DNA from: Rotaria socialis
Lineage: Eukaryota
Reading direction: 5' to 3'
NCBI GenBank assembly: GCA_905331485.1
Contig: CAJNYT010000219.1
Span: forward strand, 1-49,272
DNA: 49,272 nucleotides
Made by a program: the position numbers and the translations under genes. This document shows positions 1-49,272 of the stretch, piece after piece (position 1 is the first letter of the stretch; the number at the start of each line of letters is the position of its first letter). The notes below the pieces were generated by a model that was not told where the DNA came from, ran no database searches, and saw only the letters and a list, made by a program, of their open reading frames with translations.

Positions 1-618
1 TCGATATCTTTCTTATTTCTCAACTAATCGTTGAAAACGCAGAACAAAAAATGATCAGCGCAAAAATCTCTACAAGATGAAACCAATAAAACGGGATTTG
101 AAAACTTTTCTGTAAATGGTGGGAGGAAGCTGGTGGAAACACCCAGTTAGAATATAGAAAAATGCAATGATTAGAGAACAGTAAATGATTTACCATAAGG
201 ATGTAGGGGAAGATACAGAAATGTATGAAGTGCAACTAGTTCAAGTGGCTTTTTGTAACAGATGTTTTCAAAAAGAAAACTGCCAAATTTATTGATTTCT
301 TCGACTTGAAAAGCTAGTAGTTGTTGTACGTAACATTTGACTTTGTACATTTTACAGACAAAAGCACACGTTTTACCATCATAAAGAATCCATCGAATTT
401 TACCAATTATTGGTAGATTTGGAAATTTTTCTTTTGACACATTCAAGACTGTGCTTTGTGAATATTTATGACCACCAATAATTGCTTATATCAGCATATA
501 TCAGTTTCATTTTATAAATATATCTATGAAAAGAATCCACTCGAATATAAAGACATTGTCTATATATCTAATCATTTTAAAGGATGTCGGATATAAAAGA
601 ACAAAATTAAATATAAGC

Positions 619-675
619 AGCTTTTGTTAAATTATTTATTAAATGCCAAGATTTATTTTTCTGATCGATAGAATG
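619..675. repeat. 57-bp unit duplicated in direct orientation at 14473-14530
   Basis: agcttttgttaaattatttattaaatgccaagatttatttttctgatcgatagaatg recurs at 14473-14530 with one extra T. Similarity stops abruptly at both ends. Confidence 0.8.
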
Positions 676-740
676 TATCACTTTTCGTTGATACGACATT
701 TAATGATATTTTTCACTCATCAATATGCCCGAACGATAAT

Positions 741-3558: not shown

Positions 3559-3620
3559 AGGGTGTGGGGTGTACATATATTTATCACCTATAAATACACA
3601 TCCACACCCACACCCACACC
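3559..3620. repeat. Inverted telomeric-repeat junction
   Basis: G-arm agggtgtggggtgt (3559-3572), 23-bp AT-rich spacer, C-arm acacatccacacccacacccacacc (3596-3620). Confidence 0.85.
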
Positions 3621-4279: not shown

Positions 4280-5362
4280 TCAAATTGATCTATCTATTAC
4301 TTGGTTGTTTCTTGGGCCTGTACCTATCAGCACCACAGGAATGCCTGTTTCACGTTCCATCATTTCTATATACTGCTTGGATTTTTCTGAAAGCTGATCA
4401 TATTGTGTGATACCAGCATCATCATAGTTGATATACTGTATGAAGTTAACTGCCAATTTGTTAACACCTGTCAGTTTCACTGCACGTTTGATACGATTCA
4501 CATCAATTTCAAATACCCGTCGTAATTTCTTAGTAACAGTTGTTAATTCTTTCGAAGAAAATGTCCCAATAGGGGCACCTGCTCGTTGTTCTACTTCTTC
4601 CCATGTGATTTCTTTTCCACCATCCCCTGAATATGCTTCACCTCCATCAGATTTAGCCATGTCATTAGAAATACGAATTGGATATGTACGAATGACACCA
4701 TAGATATCTCGAATATGTTTCGGAGGAATACCGTTATCTGAAAGTCCTTGCATTGGTGAACATTCTCTGCTGGTACAATGTGGATATTGAAAACCATGAT
4801 TAATACCTAATTCAAAACCTTGTGCTATTTCTAAAATACCTGTTTTTCCTTGTTCCAAATCATCGCAAGCCATTTCAGCTGTGTCTGCCAAAAAATTCGA
4901 CCACTCTCGAATGTCATGCATTAATTTATGATCTGGATGCCGCATTACTTTGAATGCACTAGCTGCACCAACACCTTTAAATGTACTTCCAGAGCGTATA
5001 TTCTCCTTTTCCCAATCACGATGTGTTTGTTGGATAACCGATGCTCTTGGATGAATAAAAAGACGGCCTTTTGCTTTTTCTTTGCCGCCAAGATACTGAT
5101 CAACTTCATTTTCAAGCTGTACCAAATCGATAACAGCGCCAGCACCTATATATAATTTCGTACTATCATTAATTAACGCTTGTGGCAACTGTTGGAAAAC
5201 ATATTTGGTGCCATCTTGTTTTATTACCGTATGACCTGCTTGTACACCATAGCTTTCAATAGCAAAATCATATTTGTGCTTTGTAGCTAAATATCCACCA
5301 ATAAGTCCTTTCCCGCACGATCCAAAGCAGAGATCAAGAATAATATCCAACGATCGTTCCAT
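4280..5362 (-). CDS. Adenylosuccinate synthetase family protein, short form (360 aa), PurA/PurZ-like, intronless
   Basis: Uninterrupted ATG..TGA ORF. By-eye alignment to E. coli PurA (query / PurA):
- LDLCFGSCGKG / LGTQWGDEGKGK (P-loop)
- QAGHT / NAGHT
- GSTFKGVG / GTTGRGIG
- EIAQGFELGINHGFQYPHCTS / [21 protein letters not shown]
- TTVTKKLRR / ATTGRRRR
- IGTGPR / ISTGPD
The P-loop Asp is replaced (GSCGKG). The TKLD guanine-specificity motif aligns to NFIQ. Confidence 0.85.
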   Translation of the reverse strand: MERSLDIILDLCFGSCGKGLIGGYLATKHKYDFAIESYGVQAGHTVIKQDGTKYVFQQLPQALINDSTKLYIGAGAVIDLVQLENEVDQYLGGKEKAKGRLFIHPRASVIQQTHRDWEKENIRSGSTFKGVGAASAFKVMRHPDHKLMHDIREWSNFLADTAEMACDDLEQGKTGILEIAQGFELGINHGFQYPHCTSRECSPMQGLSDNGIPPKHIRDIYGVIRTYPIRISNDMAKSDGGEAYSGDGGKEITWEEVEQRAGAPIGTFSSKELTTVTKKLRRVFEIDVNRIKRAVKLTGVNKLAVNFIQYINYDDAGITQYDQLSEKSKQYIEMMERETGIPVVLIGTGPRNNQVIDRSI

Positions 5363-6863: not shown

Positions 6864-6958
6864 GGGCGTGGGTGTGGGTGTGTGGATGAAGCAGAGAATA
6901 TGCAACACCCACACCCACACCCACACCCACACCCACACCCACACCCACACCCACACCC
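6864..6958. repeat. Inverted telomeric-repeat junction with the longest tract, (ACACCC)9
   Basis: G-arm gggcgtgggtgtgggtgtgtgga (6864-6886), 18-bp spacer, then nine perfect ACACCC units (6905-6958). Confidence 0.95.
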
Positions 6959-7575: not shown

Positions 7576-9954
7576 TTAGACTTCTTTAAATAATATTCCG
7601 TAGGGTCGAACATTCTGTGAATTGTTACACGTCCATATATCTCGATTGTGCTTTGCGATCGAACTATTATTAATTCTCACTTGAAACATAACTTGCAATT
7701 GTCGGCCATTGTATGGTGTTGGCCTAGAGTAGTGTCTACTCCCGGAATATGATGGATTAGGCGATAAATATATGCCTCGACCATGAGCAGAACCATTAAC
7801 AATAGGTATCCCATTACTACCTCCAGCAATTAAACCATTACGTAGTATAGCTAAAGCATTGGCAGTTGCAGTACCATGATAAGCTACAGGCCATGCATCT
7901 TTGCCCTCCGCTAGCCATTCAGCATTTTCATATTTTCCAAGTACTTTAATAGCCTTTCTATACCATCCGCATGGCCTTGTATAAGGTTCTGGTCCACGTT
8001 GAAAAGTTCGACCGGCATCATTTCTTGTTGTAAAATCGTAGTCGTAAGTGCTATCAAGAAACTCTTCATCTAGCATAACACGATTTACAAAACGATTAGT
8101 CCGAGCAGTAGCACTTGAAAAATGTGGAATATAAGCTGCAATTGAACTCTGATTGTATTGATAAAATCGAACGTTTTGATCATCTTCCCATCGATTTATA
8201 TCATTATCAATATTCCAATAACTTAATCGAATACTTTCAGGACATGTATATTCAGATGGTTCATTTATTATTAATAGTGGACAATGCTCTTTTTTATCAC
8301 TAAATTGAATATGATCAGCTTTGAAATGAATAACTGATATAATTCGATTATAATTTTCTTCTAATGTTCCTTTGTCCGGTACATAATCTTCGTTTTTCCA
8401 TACAGTATTTGGTAAGGATTTACTTACTACGGACTTTGATTCTGATTCTTGTGCTATTTTATATTCCATTATTCGAGAAGAATAATACATAACAGCATTA
8501 CTTTCATACATATCAGCCTTTTCACACTGAGGACACTTTATTTTTACAGTAGAATTAGACTCTTGTTTAATGGTTGATGTTAGTTTATCATTTAATCTTT
8601 TACAGCACTGGTAACAAAATAAAGCTGAACAATTTGGATTAAGACATAATCTATGTTTTTCAGGTATTAAACGACAATATAAACATTCTAAAGCCGAAGT
8701 TCCTTCCATTTCAAATTTATCAATAATTTTTGATTTACGGTATTCTGATAATCGAACTTTCTTGTAACATGTTGGACAATGATGTTCATGATTTGTATTA
8801 TCACAACTGGATTCAATACAAATGCGACAAAATACTTGTGTACAATATGGGCATTCTAAATTATCATCATTAAGTTGTGATAAACAATTTAGACATTCAG
8901 GTTTATCTATGAAAATTAATGAAGATGTTGACGGTTTATTAATTAAAGTAGCTGAATTAAAATCCGTTTCAACTGCTTGTGCTAAATTAGTTTCATTGGA
9001 TGGCGTTTCTTTTTTTGAGGATATAATTGGATTTGACTGAGTAGGATTTATTTTCTTAATGTTAACTTTATCAATCTGATTATTCAATTCATTGATTTTT
9101 GTTGATATCTTCATCCAATTGCATGATGATTTTAAATTATCGATCAAGAAATCGTTGCTCCCAATAGAAATTGTTGTTGATTTTTTATTTCCAATTGTTT
9201 GTTTTGCTTGCTGGGCGGATTTAATCACATTGATGGTCTCAACTGGAAACATTAAAATAATTGTATTATTATCCAATCGAGCTTCACATTCATAATTTAT
9301 TATAGCAAATTTATCCTTATTGATGTCTGAAACTTTTTGACAGCGATCACTAGGTTGGACTGCATTAATCTGAGATGACCCTATATCTCCGTCGACGATA
9401 GTATCAGGCTGAATATTAAATTTTAATTGAACAATAGAACCAGGATTAATTCCTAAATCCAACATTGGAATATATGCATTTTTATTTAATGAGTAATATT
9501 TTCCATTAGCCATAATTCCTTGCGCATAGCGACCGTCGCAACATCTTACTTTACAAAATTGAGATAACAATAAACGATCATAGGGTAATGCTATTAATAA
9601 TGGATAATCATATATTTGGACTGATTTGAACATGGCCGTTTTTATTAATTTAATATGTGACACGTCAGCATTAGCTGAAATGAATATTTTTTCTAGTAAT
9701 TCAAAGTAATTTTCTACATTCATTGTAATTTTTTCTGATAAATGATTAGTTTGAATCATTTTACCAATATGTTGACATAATTTATTATATCTGAGTGGAT
9801 GAATTAATTGGGACGAAGGAATAATTCCCATTTTAATTTCAGTTATTGGCCAATATCTGAGATCTTGATCTTTACTAACAGCGCTAATAGGTTTATTATA
9901 ATCAGAATTTTCACTTTCTAATTGATTAGTGTTATCGGCAATTAAATGAAACAT
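7576..9954 (-). CDS. 792-aa protein: two Cys/His zinc-finger modules (RING/IBR-like) plus a C-terminal ADP-ribosyltransferase-fold (H-Y type, PARP/NEURL4-like) domain
   Basis: Single uninterrupted ORF starting at ATG.
- Zinc modules: CLNCLSQLNDDNLECPYCTQVFCRICIESSCDNTNHEHHCPTCYKK and CLYCRLIPEKHRLCLNPNCSALFCYQCCKRL...KCPQCEK.
- C-terminus: RPCGWYRKAIKVLGKYENAEWLAEGKDAWPVAYHGTATANALAILRNGL...AHGRGIYLSPNPSYS...VRPYGILFKEV. This shows the His (xYHGT) and Tyr (GxGIYxS) signatures of the PARP-type ART fold. Confidence 0.65.
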   Translation of the reverse strand: MFHLIADNTNQLESENSDYNKPISAVSKDQDLRYWPITEIKMGIIPSSQLIHPLRYNKLCQHIGKMIQTNHLSEKITMNVENYFELLEKIFISANADVSHIKLIKTAMFKSVQIYDYPLLIALPYDRLLLSQFCKVRCCDGRYAQGIMANGKYYSLNKNAYIPMLDLGINPGSIVQLKFNIQPDTIVDGDIGSSQINAVQPSDRCQKVSDINKDKFAIINYECEARLDNNTIILMFPVETINVIKSAQQAKQTIGNKKSTTISIGSNDFLIDNLKSSCNWMKISTKINELNNQIDKVNIKKINPTQSNPIISSKKETPSNETNLAQAVETDFNSATLINKPSTSSLIFIDKPECLNCLSQLNDDNLECPYCTQVFCRICIESSCDNTNHEHHCPTCYKKVRLSEYRKSKIIDKFEMEGTSALECLYCRLIPEKHRLCLNPNCSALFCYQCCKRLNDKLTSTIKQESNSTVKIKCPQCEKADMYESNAVMYYSSRIMEYKIAQESESKSVVSKSLPNTVWKNEDYVPDKGTLEENYNRIISVIHFKADHIQFSDKKEHCPLLIINEPSEYTCPESIRLSYWNIDNDINRWEDDQNVRFYQYNQSSIAAYIPHFSSATARTNRFVNRVMLDEEFLDSTYDYDFTTRNDAGRTFQRGPEPYTRPCGWYRKAIKVLGKYENAEWLAEGKDAWPVAYHGTATANALAILRNGLIAGGSNGIPIVNGSAHGRGIYLSPNPSYSGSRHYSRPTPYNGRQLQVMFQVRINNSSIAKHNRDIWTCNNSQNVRPYGILFKEV

Positions 9955-11542: not shown

Positions 11543-12551
11543 TTAGAGATCTGAGCTACGTAAACTCCAGAGTTTAATTATCCATTTGTTTGCGATTTCA
11601 TCAAAGTGGCACGATGTTACCTTAGCAGGAAAACCATCGAAAATCAAAAGTTCTTGTTCATCCGGATAATTTGAATATGGGGACATATCCAGAGAGCCGG
11701 TATCTTTTTCGAGGTCAATGACAAAAAGAAAGTTGCTGCCAAAGAATTCGGCCACGTTCGGATTAAGAGTAGTTGAGGTAAACGCCGGTAATTGGATTTT
11801 TCTTTCAGAGACAACGCATAGTCGAAATTGTTCAATTTGTTCGTTAGTCATCGTTGCTCCTCGATATACTATCATATTAGTGGGAGTAAAATTCATAGCT
11901 GAATTCAATAGTACAGCAAATGGGCCGTTTGGCCATCCATTCACCTTCTCGTTGCTTCCCCACCTTTTTCGCTTCGATTATAAATCCTTCCGCTGCCTTT
12001 TCTATCCACATCTCAAGTACTGACTGACAAGTGATACCTTTCTCCCAACCAACGCCGTAATGAGAACAAGCTTCTTGAACAAAATCAGGAGTTGTTGGTT
12101 CAATTTGCCAGTTTATGAAACTGTTCGAAGGCAAAACTGAATCTTCCAAGAAACGTTCCGCTCTTACTCGTTTCTCTCGTTCATCCTTGTTACGATCAAC
12201 TATACGTTTCACTGGCCGTTGTTTCTTTTCGTCATTATTAGAGATTTGCATAGAACGTGCAAAAACGATATGATAGTCGTCGAGAAGAGCTTCTGGTAAG
12301 CCTTGTTGGAATGCTTCTTCGATGATTTCAGTTTCTACATCGGTGTATTTTCGCCATTCAGCAGGTTCTGCAAAACAGAAAGGAAGCGCATTAGATTGCC
12401 ACAGCCACTCTATATACTGCTTGGCAATCAATGCAGTAGTAGTCATATACGCAACGACCAAACGGTAGCAGTAAAGATTAGATGTGATAGTAAAAAGAAA
12501 GAAAATGAAAGATATATTTCGTTTCATTATTGACTCTTTTTGTTGTTCCAT
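11543..12551 (-). CDS. WWE domain plus R-S-E (arginine-type) mono-ADP-ribosyltransferase, 2 exons (12551-11945, 11898-11543)
   Basis: - N-terminal part: YIEWLWQSNALPFCFAEPAEWRKYTDVETEIIEEAFQQG...YHIVFARSMQISNNDEKKQRPVKR matches the WWE pattern (W-W...W-x-Y...E-x-A...Q...R-x-V-K-R).
- C-terminal part: VYRG (Arg), FTSTT (STS) and PDEQELL (ExE) ART motifs.
- The two ORFs overlap in different frames. A 46-nt GTGAAT...TTCAG intron (11899-11944) joins them in phase, giving 963 nt = 320 aa. Confidence 0.8.
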
Positions 12552-12797
12552 TCTGTGGCTGGAAGAAAGAAAAAAAAGAAAGGAAATGAAAGGAAATGAA
12601 AGGAAAGAAAAGAAGGAGACAATGTTGGTTAACTTCTGTTATGACACGTCTATAAGCTGTGTCATAAGATGAAAGGTATCACCCAAATATCTTGAGGATG
12701 TGTATAGTAAACAGAGACGTGCACAGGATATAATTTTTTCTCCTGCTCTTGCCTGTCCTGTTACCTACCTTGGTTCTGGTGGGCGGCAGGACAGGAG

Positions 12798-12868
12798 AGG
12801 GTGTGGGTGTGGGGTGTGTAGAGGTGGATGTGTGAGGTGATGCTTCTCTTCACTCACACTCACACCCT
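12798..12868. repeat. Inverted telomeric-repeat junction, preceded by a GC-rich CCTGTCCTG/CAGGACAGG hairpin (12752-12797)
   Basis: G-arm gagggtgtgggtgtggggtgtgtagaggtggatgtgtgaggtg; C-arm cactcacactcacaccct. Confidence 0.8.
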
Positions 12869-13386
12869 AAAAATGGAAAGAAAACAAAAACGTATGACGA
12901 AAAAGCAGTAGGTCTCATTAAGTTTTGAGTCTCGATATATCTATAACAAAGGTTGAAGAGGAGCTGGCCATGCAATTTTGGCAGAGAAAAATTTGCTGTA
13001 TCAAACGAAATATTATTCAAAAAGGTTCTGATAGCTTACTACAAAAAACATAACTAAATACTAACTTAACCAATTTTCTATAAAAAAAAGTCGTTTTATT
13101 GAACTGTTGAGTGCGCATTGTTTTTTATTTTGCCATAACTGACGACCTGTAGATCCTTACATGTTGAGGGCGTATTCAATGCGTACTTCATAACATTTTA
13201 GCAGTGACCTAGAGTAAGCTAAATATTTGGATTTGTAGGTTTTTTTATCTTGCTCTTTCATTTCCTATCACAAAGTATAGCGTCTAAAATTTTTGGAAGT
13301 GCGATCCTGTGAAAAAAGATTCGATTTTCTCACGGAGCGTCTCTGAATTCACACTATTAAAATTCAGTATTTAGCGGGTGACTAAG

Positions 13387-13510
13387 GATGTGGGGAGTGT
13401 GGTGTGGGTGTGGGTGGGTGTGGGTGTGAGTGTGTGTGAATCGCCAAACAAAACACCTATAGGGCACCCACACCAGCACCAACTCACGCCCATACACCAA
13501 CACCCACACC
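13387..13510. repeat. Inverted telomeric-repeat junction (long, degenerate arms)
   Basis: G-arm ggatgtggggagtgtggtgtgggtgtgggtgggtgtgggtgtgagtgtgtgtg (13387-13438); C-arm cacccacaccagcaccaactcacgcccatacaccaacacccacacc (13465-13510). Confidence 0.85.
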
Positions 13511-14461
13511 AGAGACCGTCACAGGGCAGGGCAAAAGTTTTTGCCCTGCGCCCTGATAATTTTTCCTATAAACTGATATACAGCATATTTTTCAGTAGAT
13601 TATGCTGACATGGTGATGGATTATAATGTATGTCATTATGCGCCAGTCACTGTGAAATTTGTTACTATGTCTAGTTCGGACAATACCAGTTTACTCATTT
13701 ATTATCATATAATTCAATTATAAAAATAAAATACTGCTTCTAAGAGAAATGCAAAACATGGTAGAATCATTTAATATTGTATAAGAGAACGAGCTAATTT
13801 AAGAATTATGTGTATGATGAGCTTTTTTTCTAAATGATTTCAGACATGAGCTTAGTATTCCAGAGGAAATTTCACTTGAAGATTCAACATGTTCTAATGG
13901 TAACTTTCTTCGCATGTTTTAGTTTTGTATGCTTAGTTCTCTATGTTTTAAATTATTTTCACTTGATATGAACTCGCCCGGTTTTACAAAATTAGAAGAT
14001 CTCTTATTTCATGATAAATCTTACCGCCCCATAATACACAATGAATCTCTTGCTACTGGTACATTTTGAAGAGTCTTTATTTACCCAGCACGATGAGTTG
14101 AGGAGAATACATGTGAAAGATTTACTTGATTTCTCACTTATTCAAATTATGTACATATTCAATCGCCAGATCACGATAAGCGCATTATTTTTGCAGTGAA
14201 CTGATTTTTGTGATAATCTTAATTGCTGTTTGCTACTCATACTTAATTATGTTTTCAGCGCATATCTATATTTTCTCGAATATAGATAAATAAAAATACG
14301 AGTACTTTACTTTTCAGCGGTTACAACATTTTCATTTAGTCTTTACCTTTTTCAATATTTCAGTTCAATTTATAATCACGCCCTGTCCTGCCCTGAGACA
14401 GGGCAGGATATAGCAGGGCGCAGGGCAGGACAGGGCAAAAAGTTGCCCTGTGACGATCTCT
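13511..14461. mobile_element. Non-autonomous element of about 950 bp with GC-rich CAGGGC-palindromic terminal inverted repeats, apparently inserted into the telomeric C-arm
   Basis: The left end is agagaccgtcacagggcagggcaaaagtttttgccctgcgccctg. The reverse complement of the right end is agagatcgtcacagggcaactttttgccctgtcctgccctgcgccctg. The interior is AT-rich with no ORF. C-strand telomeric sequence lies on both sides (..cacccacacc | element | gatccacaccc). Confidence 0.65.
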
Positions 14462-14472
14462 GATCCACACCC

Positions 14473-14530
14473 AGCTTTTGTTAAATTATTTATTAAATGC
14501 CAAGATTTATTTTTTCTGATCGATAGAATG
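14473..14530. repeat. Second copy of the 57-bp unit at 619-675
   Basis: Starts immediately after the solo telomeric C-arm ccacaccc (14465-14472). Confidence 0.8.
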
Positions 14531-16377
14531 GTATTTGTGTATTGAATGAGAAGGGAAATGAAAATTTTTCACTTCTATAAAAACATAGTTGTAAAATATT
14601 TTAACAGTTAAAATAAATATTAAATTCGATTTTACTCATCAATTAATTGAAATTAATAGTTTAGAAAAATCTATTCTATTATGAGCAGAAATTATCAAAG
14701 GTTAAATGAATTTACATAGTACAGAACAAAAATATATGAATCGTTACTATTGCGATGTAATCGAACAAATGCTTCGAGTGCTAGAGGCATCATTATATAT
14801 TGAACTATGTAGAAGTTTATTAATAATAATCTATGAAACTCATTTAGTCTCGGAATATTATCTTCGTAGACATTGAAATTTTGTAAAAATACAATTTTAG
14901 TTTTAGTTTTCTATCATTTGAAATAGGAAATGACTTTTATTGTAATTAAGAAAGCAGTAAAATATCTTATCATCGAAGTCATCCATGATATCTAAGTGAA
15001 ATTATTAGAGATAATCAAGTTGATTTGTTCCGAATTTCATTTCAACACGTTTTGTATTCGTTTTCAATTGTATTTAATAACTGATAAACATGGTCAAGTA
15101 TTATTCAAATATGAATAATTCTGTTGTATTTAAACATAAAGATTTCGATTGAACATACGAAGAGAAACTTTCATTGCTAATGAAAAATATTGAATAATCA
15201 TTGAGACATTTGAACGACTTGTCTTCGCTTTTAAGAATGACGCCAAAATATAAACCTATTTTAATTAGTTCGACACACAGCTATTTAGTCACGCTCGATT
15301 AAATATATATAATTATTTACTTGTAAACAAATTATTTTTTAAAAAATAATTGTATATTTAAATGGCAAATATATTTACAAAAAAAAGTGTTGCTTGAAGT
15401 TCACTGTGATAATGGTTGTGGTTTACTTGTCAATGAAAATTGTCGAGAAAATCTTTTGTTTTTTTTCTTTATTGAATAATCTTTCTCTTCATTTTTGTTA
15501 ATTAGTCAATACATTTATTAAATTATATTCGAACTCATTATTATTTGTCATCATCAATAAAAAATGGATTTATGTTTAATAAATAGTGGAGAACCATTGC
15601 ATCTTTCATCATCTGATACAAAAATTATTTCATCAGGAAGATATTGTTTTCCGTCTCTTTTTCATTGAAGATCTGGATGCATGATATTCACCTCACACAT
15701 TCTACTCTTGTCTTAGTGCATGGGAAAAGACACATATATTTTTGTTGAACAGAAATCTTATTTTCAATCTTTTTTATTTGCTTAGTTTAACAGCTTTGGT
15801 GTGAATGAGAGATGAGCACAATATGCTCTCCCATCCACACGTTTGCCTTCGAGCTATTTTTAATTATTTGTCTCTAGAATAATGATAAAATTGTTAAACT
15901 TGAAAAAAAATCATTCATAAATATGAAATATCTAATAACTTATCAATATATATTCGAGTTTTATGATAGCACATCAATATGCGTATAAAATTCTCCATAG
16001 GTGCACACTTATCAATAAGGAAATGGATGATCTTAACCATTCTATCGTTTCTAGTACTATAATGGGCCACTTCTACAGTTCGATATATCAAAAATTAATA
16101 GATTACATCTACATTGAAAATATCTGGTAAATAGTTTCATCGGATTAATTCACCTATATATTTCTTTTTTTCTATAAGGAATCTTTTTGTTAACATAATT
16201 GATTATCAATGATCGGCTATCATTTAGACGATGTCCGTCAAGCATTGTATAAGTATACGTCTATTCTATTATCCGATAGACACATTATATCGACAATGAA
16301 TTCTTTATCAGGTATGAGTATGTGTAGCTCTTTGATAATATCATTTATTTGTATTATTCTTCTGTACAGAAGACTCC

Positions 16378-20126: not shown

Positions 20127-20198
20127 TGACCTTCATGGAGATCGAACCCATACCTTCTGCTATCCAGGCAGATGTCCTACCAGTTAGACTAGAAGAAC
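20127..20198 (-). tRNA. tRNA-like sequence (probable tRNA pseudogene or tRNA-derived element), nominal anticodon GGA
   Basis: Minus strand: GTTCTTC TA GTCT AACTGGTA GGAC A TCTGC CTGGATA GCAGA AGGT ATGGG TTCGATC TCCAT GAAGGTC A. The cloverleaf is drawable and has A-box-like and B-box-like (GGTTCGATC) motifs. Anomalies: a U2-U71 mismatch, G53-U61 in place of G-C, a pyrimidine at position 37, and a Ser anticodon without the long variable arm. Confidence 0.3.
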
Positions 20199-21250: not shown

Positions 21251-21303
21251 GAGGATGTGGGTGTAAGCAATCTTTGTATTAACAATCCCACTCACACCCA
21301 CAC
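21251..21303. repeat. Inverted telomeric-repeat junction
   Basis: G-arm gaggatgtgggtgt, 22-bp spacer, C-arm cccactcacacccacac. Confidence 0.8.
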
Positions 21304-23097: not shown

Positions 23098-23162
23098 TTG
23101 TGTGTGGGTGTGGGTATGGGCTGATCATGAGTCAGATAGGCACCTGCACCCACACCCACCCT
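23098..23162. repeat. Inverted telomeric-repeat junction
   Basis: G-arm ttgtgtgtgggtgtgggtatggg, 26-bp spacer, C-arm cacccacacccaccct. Confidence 0.85.
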
Positions 23163-24861: not shown

Positions 24862-24954
24862 TGGGTGTGGGTGTGAGATGTGGGCGGGCATAATTTTGAT
24901 TGTGCGTACATGAGACAATAGAATAATATTCATACCCACAACCACACCCACACC
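24862..24954. repeat. Inverted telomeric-repeat junction
   Basis: G-arm tgggtgtgggtgtgagatgtgggcggg, 45-bp spacer, C-arm acccacaaccacacccacacc. Confidence 0.85.
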
Positions 24955-25438: not shown

Positions 25439-25495
25439 AGGGTGTGGGTGTAGACTGAATTAAAAACAGCGTATCCACATCGACACCCACACCCA
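25439..25495. repeat. Inverted telomeric-repeat junction
   Basis: G-arm agggtgtgggtgt, 21-bp spacer, C-arm atccacatcgacacccacaccc. Confidence 0.85.
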
Positions 25496-27722: not shown

Positions 27723-27778
27723 GGGGTGTGTGGTGTGGGTGTGGATATGATCCAGACTGGAAAATTCACCCACACCCA
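27723..27778. repeat. Inverted telomeric-repeat junction starting 15 nt after the ART-TPR stop codon
   Basis: G-arm ggggtgtgtggtgtgggtgtgga, 21-bp spacer, C-arm cacccacaccca. Confidence 0.9.
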
Positions 27779-48315: not shown

Positions 48316-49272
48316 TTACAACCATTCTGGAAAGCGTGCTTGGGTCTCTAAATATAGTTTATCGAGTCGTTCAATTTCTGTCAGTTGTGACTTGCTGGGT
48401 TTAATTAACAACACCTTGTAATCAAAATATCGCAAAATAACCAAATCAGTTAAGCGTTTTACCCGCGATAAGGGTACATAGACTGCAGCAATATCATCGG
48501 TTTCATTTGGCAGTTTTAAATCAATCACAACTTTATTCAATGTTTGACCTTGACTCTTGTGTGTTGTAATGCAATAAGCTGGTACAAGTGGTAATGCGCG
48601 CCGTTTAATTGATAACAGTGTTTTTCTATTTGATTTTGGTTTCTTATCTTTTGGAAGCATATCGCCTATATCGACTCGAAATGTTTGTTCCATTACCGGT
48701 ATTGGAATCAGTTTTGGCTGAAGTTGTTCTAAATTGCATTCGATCGTTGATTTGCTAATTTCCACCAAGGCGTACAGAGGTCGATGGACATATCGTGCAT
48801 TCTTGGAAAATTCTTCTGAAATAATATCAGTTGACACGGAATCTTCCTGGTAGACAAGCTGCCGAAAGATTCCGTTCACACCGTTGATAAGACCCAATTC
48901 AATTGCAATATTTTGCGTTAAAATTACAGGCATTCCAGGAACAAGAGGTAATAGACCTGGTAGATGCTCTGTTTTACTATCAGATAATTCTAATCATTTT
49001 TTAATAAGTGCTCGATCTTCAATTGGTTTGCCTTTGCAGGTGTCTTGGGCAATGCATACTATAGGTGTCTGTCCCACTTGTTGTGCTTTGTGACTAAGTG
49101 CCTTGTGATTTAATTGTGTTCGTATTTCGTTACGAAATACAAGAATCGGAGCCTAAAATGATGAAGATAGTGAATTGTCTAAATCTAGAAAAACAAATTT
49201 ACTTTATTCCATGGTGAATCACTTAACAAGGGTACGGAAGATTGCCCCACTATTCGTGTTAACAATAATTCG
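48316..49272 (-). pseudogene. Pif1-family (Helitron-type) helicase C-terminal region, interrupted by an in-frame TGA; runs off the window edge
   Basis: - Minus strand: ..APILVFRNEIRTQLNHKAL...KGKPIEDRALIKK*LELSDSKTEHLPGLLPLVPGMPVILTQNIAIELGLINGVNG...LPLVPAYCITTHKSQGQTLNKVVIDL...AVYVPLSRVKRLTDLVIL (Pif1 motifs TxHKSQG and YVAxSR).
- The in-frame TGA is at 48994-48996.
- A candidate 75-nt intron is at 49153-49227. Confidence 0.7.

Follow-up and report, generated by a model that had tools for sequence, protein, structure and literature searches.

The contig of the bdelloid rotifer Rotaria socialis analysed here carries, inside a run of C-strand telomeric repeat, a short stretch of DNA with GC-rich inverted ends, and the locus raises the question of what kind of element this is and whether its family is drawn to telomeric repeats. 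The whole contig, 49,272 bp, is called the window below, and all positions without another source are positions in it. The element is 953 bp long and occupies positions 13510-14462. A preliminary description had placed it at 13511-14472; it does lie there, with the left limit set 1 nt short and the right limit 10 nt beyond the terminal inverted repeat (TIR), and the right TIR arm, correctly recognised, ends at 14462 and not at the 14461 then quoted. The TIR includes the "c" at 13510 on the left and the "g" at 14462 on the right, and the "at" after this "g" is duplicated target.

The two TIR arms are 19 nt long and complementary at 18 of 19 positions (95%), a second inverted pair of 17 nt (94%) is present at 13542-13558 and 14411-14427, and when two indels are allowed the similarity between the element ends reaches about 46 nt. 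The window has just two copies of the 12-mer CGTCACAGGGCA, one at each end of the element, and 11 of the window's 16 GCCCTG/CAGGGC hexamers are found in the termini, which add up to about 130 bp and where 0.01 would be expected. As had been claimed, each end is palindromic: folded as single-stranded DNA, the left end gives -14.5 kcal/mol (z = -5.5) and the right end -29.9 kcal/mol (z = -7.3), and 0 of 200 shuffles equalled either value. The GC fraction is 0.60 and 0.61 in the ends versus 0.30 in the interior, so the earlier picture of inverted GC-rich ends around an AT-rich, ORF-free interior stands (Table 1). Nothing similar to this interior was found in other family members or in any other sequence compared.

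Table 1. Features of the element, its target and the surrounding contig (positions in the 49,272-bp window)
Feature	Position	Strand	Description
Target: head-to-head telomeric junction	13389..13509		G-run 13389-13440, unique 24-nt spacer, degenerate C-strand run 13465-13509
Left 8-bp target-site duplication	13502..13509	+	ACCCACAC; 7/8 match to right copy
Left TIR	13510..13528	+	CAGAGACCGTCACAGGGCA; identical 19-mer in at least 15 metagenome loci
Left subterminal region	13519..13556	+	4 CAGGGC/GCCCTG hexamers; hairpin around AAAAGTTTTT
AT-rich interior	13557..14379		GC 0.30; longest ORF 52 aa
Right subterminal region	14380..14443	+	6 hexamers, a seventh inside the TIR; perfect 16-nt inverted pair GCCCTGTCCTGCCCTG / CAGGGCAGGACAGGGC
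Right TIR	14444..14462	-	minus strand = CAGAGATCGTCACAGGGCA; one C/T mismatch
Right 8-bp target-site duplication	14463..14470	+	ATCCACAC
Decayed terminus, second family copy	12712..12795	+	CAGAGACGTGCACAGGATA, T-run, CCTG-type repeats, CCTGTCCTG...CAGGACAGG hairpin
Head-to-head junctions 1-5	3560-3620, 6868-6958, 12799-12870, 13389-13510, 21256-21303
Head-to-head junctions 6-10	23102-23159, 24862-24954, 25440-25495, 27724-27778, 39772-39826
Adenylosuccinate synthetase gene	4280-5362	-
Glycosyltransferase gene	28479-29555	-
PARP catalytic fragment	34809-35378	+
Helicase C-terminal fragment	48316-48933	-

The telomeric unit of bdelloids is TGTGGG (PMC7943196), and C-strand telomeric sequence is found on both sides of the element (...CAACACCCACAC / element / ATCCACACCCAG), the C-run of the head-to-head junction resuming beyond it at 14463-14473. 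When the element and one duplicate are removed, ...ACACCCACACCCAGC is restored, and with it ...CAACACCCACACCCAGCTTTTG..., a continuous ACACCC run; an empty site would be expected to read ...CAACACCCACACCCAGCTTTTGTT... at the insertion point. Because the duplicated target is telomeric repeat and excision restores a continuous run, these observations support insertion of the element into the C-strand arm after the head-to-head junction had formed, in agreement with the earlier proposal that it had landed in the (ACACCC)n arm. The insertion thus dates the junction, which is older than the element. The flanks in the window are 6-nt periodic, so the length of the duplication is ambiguous from this copy alone, and it is the family data that settle it.

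The family was sought by querying metagenome contigs with AGAYCGTCACAGGGCA. Among the matches listed, at least about 100 are chance matches in contigs of 0.4-0.76 GC (high-GC bacterial) that have no further similarity to the element. Contigs of 0.28-0.42 GC contain at least about 17 other loci at which the left TIR 19-mer is followed by a T-run and then by GCCCTG arrays, which often continue into a (GCCCTG)n...(CAGGGC)n palindrome; with the same 19-mer and the same end architecture at all of them, the element does belong to a family, as the preliminary description had supposed. Each locus has its own sequence beyond CAGAGA, and this sets the tip of the element at CAGAGA. Five further contigs (L128, L129 and L137-L139) were added through a short ORF that is common to one subfamily. 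Interiors differ from subfamily to subfamily, and very short derivatives occur (56 bp in L087, about 90 bp in L071). The family-bearing contigs are short metagenome assemblies in which subtelomeres are under-sampled and whose taxon we infer: their identical TIR, their low GC and the rotifer-like proteins in the same metagenome sources suggest that they come from bdelloids. R. socialis itself has one full copy and one remnant in the approximately 65 kb examined. Wider TIR scans gave two matches only in bacterial and archaeal genomes, both of them chance matches in high-GC bacteria, and zero matches in viral contigs. The 19-mer TIR together with GCCCTG arrays (e.g. CAGAGAYCGTCA(T)CAGGGCA) is a family signature for annotating rotifer genomes, and it could also pick out rotifer contigs in metagenomes. 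We note that nested transposons are present in several of the metagenome contigs (L129 1-1771, L120 in its oriented form at about 190-545, and L128 at about 600-725); the first of these holds a family member within a hAT/Buster-like (DUF4371) gene that has decayed, and a different small TIR element (GGCTTCCCGATT... / ...AATCGGGAACCC) occupies the same insertion position in two family members.

The TIRs of hAT elements are short (about 10-25 bp) and have the tip consensus YARNG, and the TIR of this family is 19 nt long and starts with CAGAG. In the two-ended copies the last k bases of the left flank were compared with the first k bases of the right flank for k = 2-12, and k = 8 alone stands out, with 7/8 matches in the window, 6/8 in L103, 6/8 in L071 and 5/8 in L090. 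The left flank of L012 and the right flank of L128 agree at 8/8 positions (AGATGAAT) and probably represent both junctions of a single insertion, each seen in a different sample. In three copies the 8-bp duplication is poor (L087 4/8, L120 2/8 and L137 1/8); the two long ones are members of a multi-copy subfamily, and in their case chimeric assembly of the metagenome may be the cause. Of 23 flanks, 15 have T as base 2 (P = 0.002) and 16 have A as base 7 (P = 0.0005), which gives the pattern nTnnnnAn. This is also the target pattern of Hermes, whose duplication is likewise 8 bp (PMC10368747; PMC2803484). The TIR tip CAGAGAC resembles hobo CAGAGAAC, with CAGAGA a match to hobo, whose ITR can be read from ...GCAGTTCTCTG (PMC2803484). 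Finally, hAT elements need clustered subterminal repeats, which in Hermes are bound by the BED domain (PMC10368747); the 11 hexamers of this element form a comparable cluster in its termini, and hexamer arrays are present in all family members. The 8-bp duplication, the nTnnnnAn pattern and the CAGAGA tip all point to the hobo/Ac/Hermes branch, and we think it likely that the element is a non-autonomous class II hAT transposon, its cis features nearest to those of hobo, Ac and Hermes, that inserted incidentally in an interstitial telomere-type repeat.

It is unlikely that the element is a TIR transposon of some other superfamily (P, Merlin, Mutator or foldback-like) and resembles hAT by coincidence. 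No transposase is tied to these TIRs, the ends of the L004, L048 and L079 subfamilies have long hexamer arrays and palindromes that recall foldback elements, and a foldback-like insertion is known from Adineta vaga (PMC2861651), but the 8-bp duplication, nTnnnnAn and the CAGAGA tip are together the signature of hobo and Hermes, the true inverted repeat is just 19 nt, and the hexamer arrays are asymmetric between the two ends, like hAT subterminal regions (PMC10368747). P and Merlin, the other superfamilies with 8-bp duplications, are set aside by TIR sequence and target pattern only.

As a hAT element, this one codes for nothing and would be moved in trans by a transposase, presumably of hAT type, that recognises the 19-bp TIRs and the GCCCTG hexamers in the first 40-150 bp of each end; the hexamers are the likely counterpart of the Hermes subterminal repeats that the BED domain binds. 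Staggered cuts 8 bp apart at integration would give the 8-bp duplication. The present copy would have integrated in a short interstitial (ACACCC)n within a transposon-rich region of R. socialis that also has bacterial-type genes, and its telomeric target may be a by-product of the high local density of such repeats. Class II elements are common in bdelloids and have low copy numbers (PMC7943196, PMC8494291).

Among the family loci examined there was no autonomous copy, nor a transposase with these TIRs, and the conserved internal ORF of the L014/L120 subfamily matched only proteins of 55-90 aa. The hAT-like DUF4371 gene of L129 was considered as the transposase partner and rejected: it lies outside the TIR and is therefore the target of an insertion and not a partner.

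Eight R. socialis contigs from several assemblies represent the same haplotype and all carry the element; wherever an R. socialis contig covers the site, the element is there at 99.9% identity. Two seeming rearrangements with breaks at the element, in L124/L130 (window 13717) and L133 (window 14455), are single-N scaffold joins and thus artefacts; the joins in L130 and L133, inside the element and at the right TIR respectively, lead into unrelated DNA, and the piece joined in L133 has an ORF that, we take it, resembles a MULE-type transposase. Two public R. socialis assemblies thus have scaffold misjoins at the repeats of the element. In Rotaria magnacalcarata six orthologous contigs were found (96-98% identity). 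Five of them (L001 and L143-L146) reach window position 13032, where homology is lost, and stop no more than about 1.5 kb further on; L142, the remaining one, stops before that point, inside a 740-bp insertion that the R. magnacalcarata contigs carry at window position 12683-12688. The new sequence that begins at 13032 in L001 and L143-L146 starts with TAGGGGTGGCAC and is possibly the tip of another hAT-like element (insertion and new sequence: L001 1-1583 and 1935-2673; L143-L146). An empty site was thus seen in neither species among these contigs.

A related CCTGTCCTG/CAGGACAGG hairpin had been noted near 12798, and it is real (12752-12795, fold z = -4.3) and part of a degenerate family terminus. 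The sequence at the tip of this terminus is 4 edits from the TIR, and apart from the TIRs themselves nothing else in the window comes that close (0.23 expected); the remnant as a whole aligns to the first 81 nt of the right end of the element, while nhmmer taken by itself gives a weak match (E = 0.75). The remnant breaks off about 84 bp from its start, and a telomeric G-run (12799-12818) is directly next to it. The remnant is conserved in R. magnacalcarata (orthologous sequence in L001) and is therefore older than the split of the two Rotaria species.

Both family termini in the window thus touch telomeric runs, of which there are about 28 in 49 kb (about 1-2% of the window), and this would be unlikely under random insertion within the window. 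The suggestion made at the outset, that the family has an affinity for telomeric repeats, is nevertheless not supported for the family as a whole, as at least about 17 other loci have unrelated, AT-rich, non-telomeric flanks: insertion in telomeric repeats recurs at 0 of these loci, which lie on the short metagenome contigs described above, and the family-bearing contigs, 42 kb in all, contain not one double telomeric hexamer. The contact with telomeric repeats is most likely incidental, a product of the history of the region, and we give little credence to a local link between the family and telomeric runs in Rotaria. A telomere-targeting family, one that integrates preferentially into (TGTGGG)n or is retained there, is improbable. 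The full copy does lie inside a C-strand run with a telomeric duplication, the decayed terminus does adjoin the G-run at 12799, and two contacts out of two are hard to obtain by random placement among runs that are so small a part of the window. Against this stand, besides the flanks and the lack of double hexamers at the other loci, the poor fit of the repeat to the target pattern, since the C strand has no T and so matches only half of nTnnnnAn, and the state of the second copy, which is truncated and capped rather than inserted in repeat.

Still less probable is a physical tie between family ends and the formation of telomere repeats in Rotaria, with the ends acting either as preferred sites of chromosome breaks that telomerase then heals or through preferred integration into interstitial runs. 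The first variant is suggested by the 12712-12795 terminus, cut just past its hairpin and capped by a G-run, and the second by the full copy, which sits in a telomeric run; if either were true, a DNA transposon family would help to build the patchwork of the contig, with its blocks that have a C-run at the left and a G-run at the right. It is scarcely credible that the locus is not mobile at all and that its palindromic sequence arose locally through break repair or telomere fusion, as might be suggested by its place at one of the many head-to-head telomeric junctions of the region: the identical 19-mer and end architecture are found at at least about 17 unrelated loci from other samples and the termini are unrelated to telomeric sequence. 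Incidental insertion of a non-autonomous hAT element is the reading that we prefer.

The transposon-rich, gene-poor regions of bdelloid genomes are enriched in interstitial telomeric repeats (PMC7943196; PMC8494291; PMC2861651), and the window fits this picture. It contains ten head-to-head junctions, each made up of a G-run, a unique spacer of 20-50 nt and a C-run, which split the contig into blocks that range from about 0.5 to 12 kb. Every block has a C-run at its left and a G-run at its right; it looks as though linear fragments with caps at both ends had been strung together, with filler DNA at the joins. A limited literature search found no description of such a telomere-capped block architecture. 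By itself the element matters little, and the architecture that surrounds it deserves more attention; many class II families of low copy number are known from bdelloids, concentrated where telomeric repeats abound. Just past the element and the telomeric run on its right, 14472-14727 is a truncated copy of a dispersed repeat, 97% identical over 63 bp to window 618-678 and 95% identical over 257 bp to a paralogue in L133; the longer paralogues (window 479-678 and L133, reverse complement, 14399-14812) extend further left without telomeric repeat, which is consistent with addition of a telomere at a break inside the repeat.

The genes of the window include PARP, WWE/ART, TPR, caspase and VIT/VWA genes and bacterial-type adenylosuccinate synthetase and glycosyltransferase genes. 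A 792-aa ORF with a PARP domain (7576-9954) is 95% identical to an R. magnacalcarata protein, and the product of the WWE/ART gene (11545-12446) is 100% identical to an R. socialis protein; such matches to Rotaria proteins rule out a yeast with TG1-3 repeats as the source. A PARP catalytic fragment is also present. The adenylosuccinate synthetase gene and the glycosyltransferase gene, the latter EryCIII-like, have no introns and encode bacterial-type domains, and they are candidate horizontal acquisitions. The helicase C-terminal fragment at the contig end has a weak match to UvrD_C_2 and looks Pif1/Helitron-like by eye. An Rfam search of the window gave only a tRNA, at 20127-20198 on the minus strand (72 nt, 49 bits), which ARAGORN calls tRNA-Ser(GGA). 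For a serine tRNA of a eukaryote it is unusual both in its length, with the long variable arm missing, and in its anticodon, and the identity call may be wrong or the sequence may be tRNA-derived.

Among known systems, the telomere-associated bdelloid retroelements Athena/Terminon and Hebe share with the element its setting, the same telomeric-repeat-rich, gene-poor regions. They are added to chromosome ends by reverse transcription, whereas this element has a TIR and a target duplication and its relatives are in non-telomeric DNA. Like foldback elements, it is non-coding and has GC-rich ends with internal repeats that are able to fold back; unlike them, it has an inverted repeat of 19 nt, end arrays that differ from each other and an 8-bp duplication, and its ends are asymmetric and take up 47 and 83 bp of a total of 953 bp, where foldback elements consist for the most part of long TIRs built from tandem subrepeats. 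MITEs are typically shorter than about 800 bp and of high copy number; the element is non-coding and has a TIR and a target-site duplication as they do, but at 953 bp, with a unique interior, it is larger than a classic MITE. The closest resemblance is to hobo, Hermes and Ac and their derivatives (Ds and the hAT MITEs), with which it shares the short TIR starting with CAGAGA, the 8-bp duplication, nTnnnnAn, short subterminal repeats clustered in both orientations, and, in its family, non-coding internally deleted forms that include very short ones such as L087 and L071. It differs from hobo, Hermes and Ac in that no transposase gene is tied to its ends and in that its GCCCTG subterminal motif and the rest of its TIR are specific to the family.
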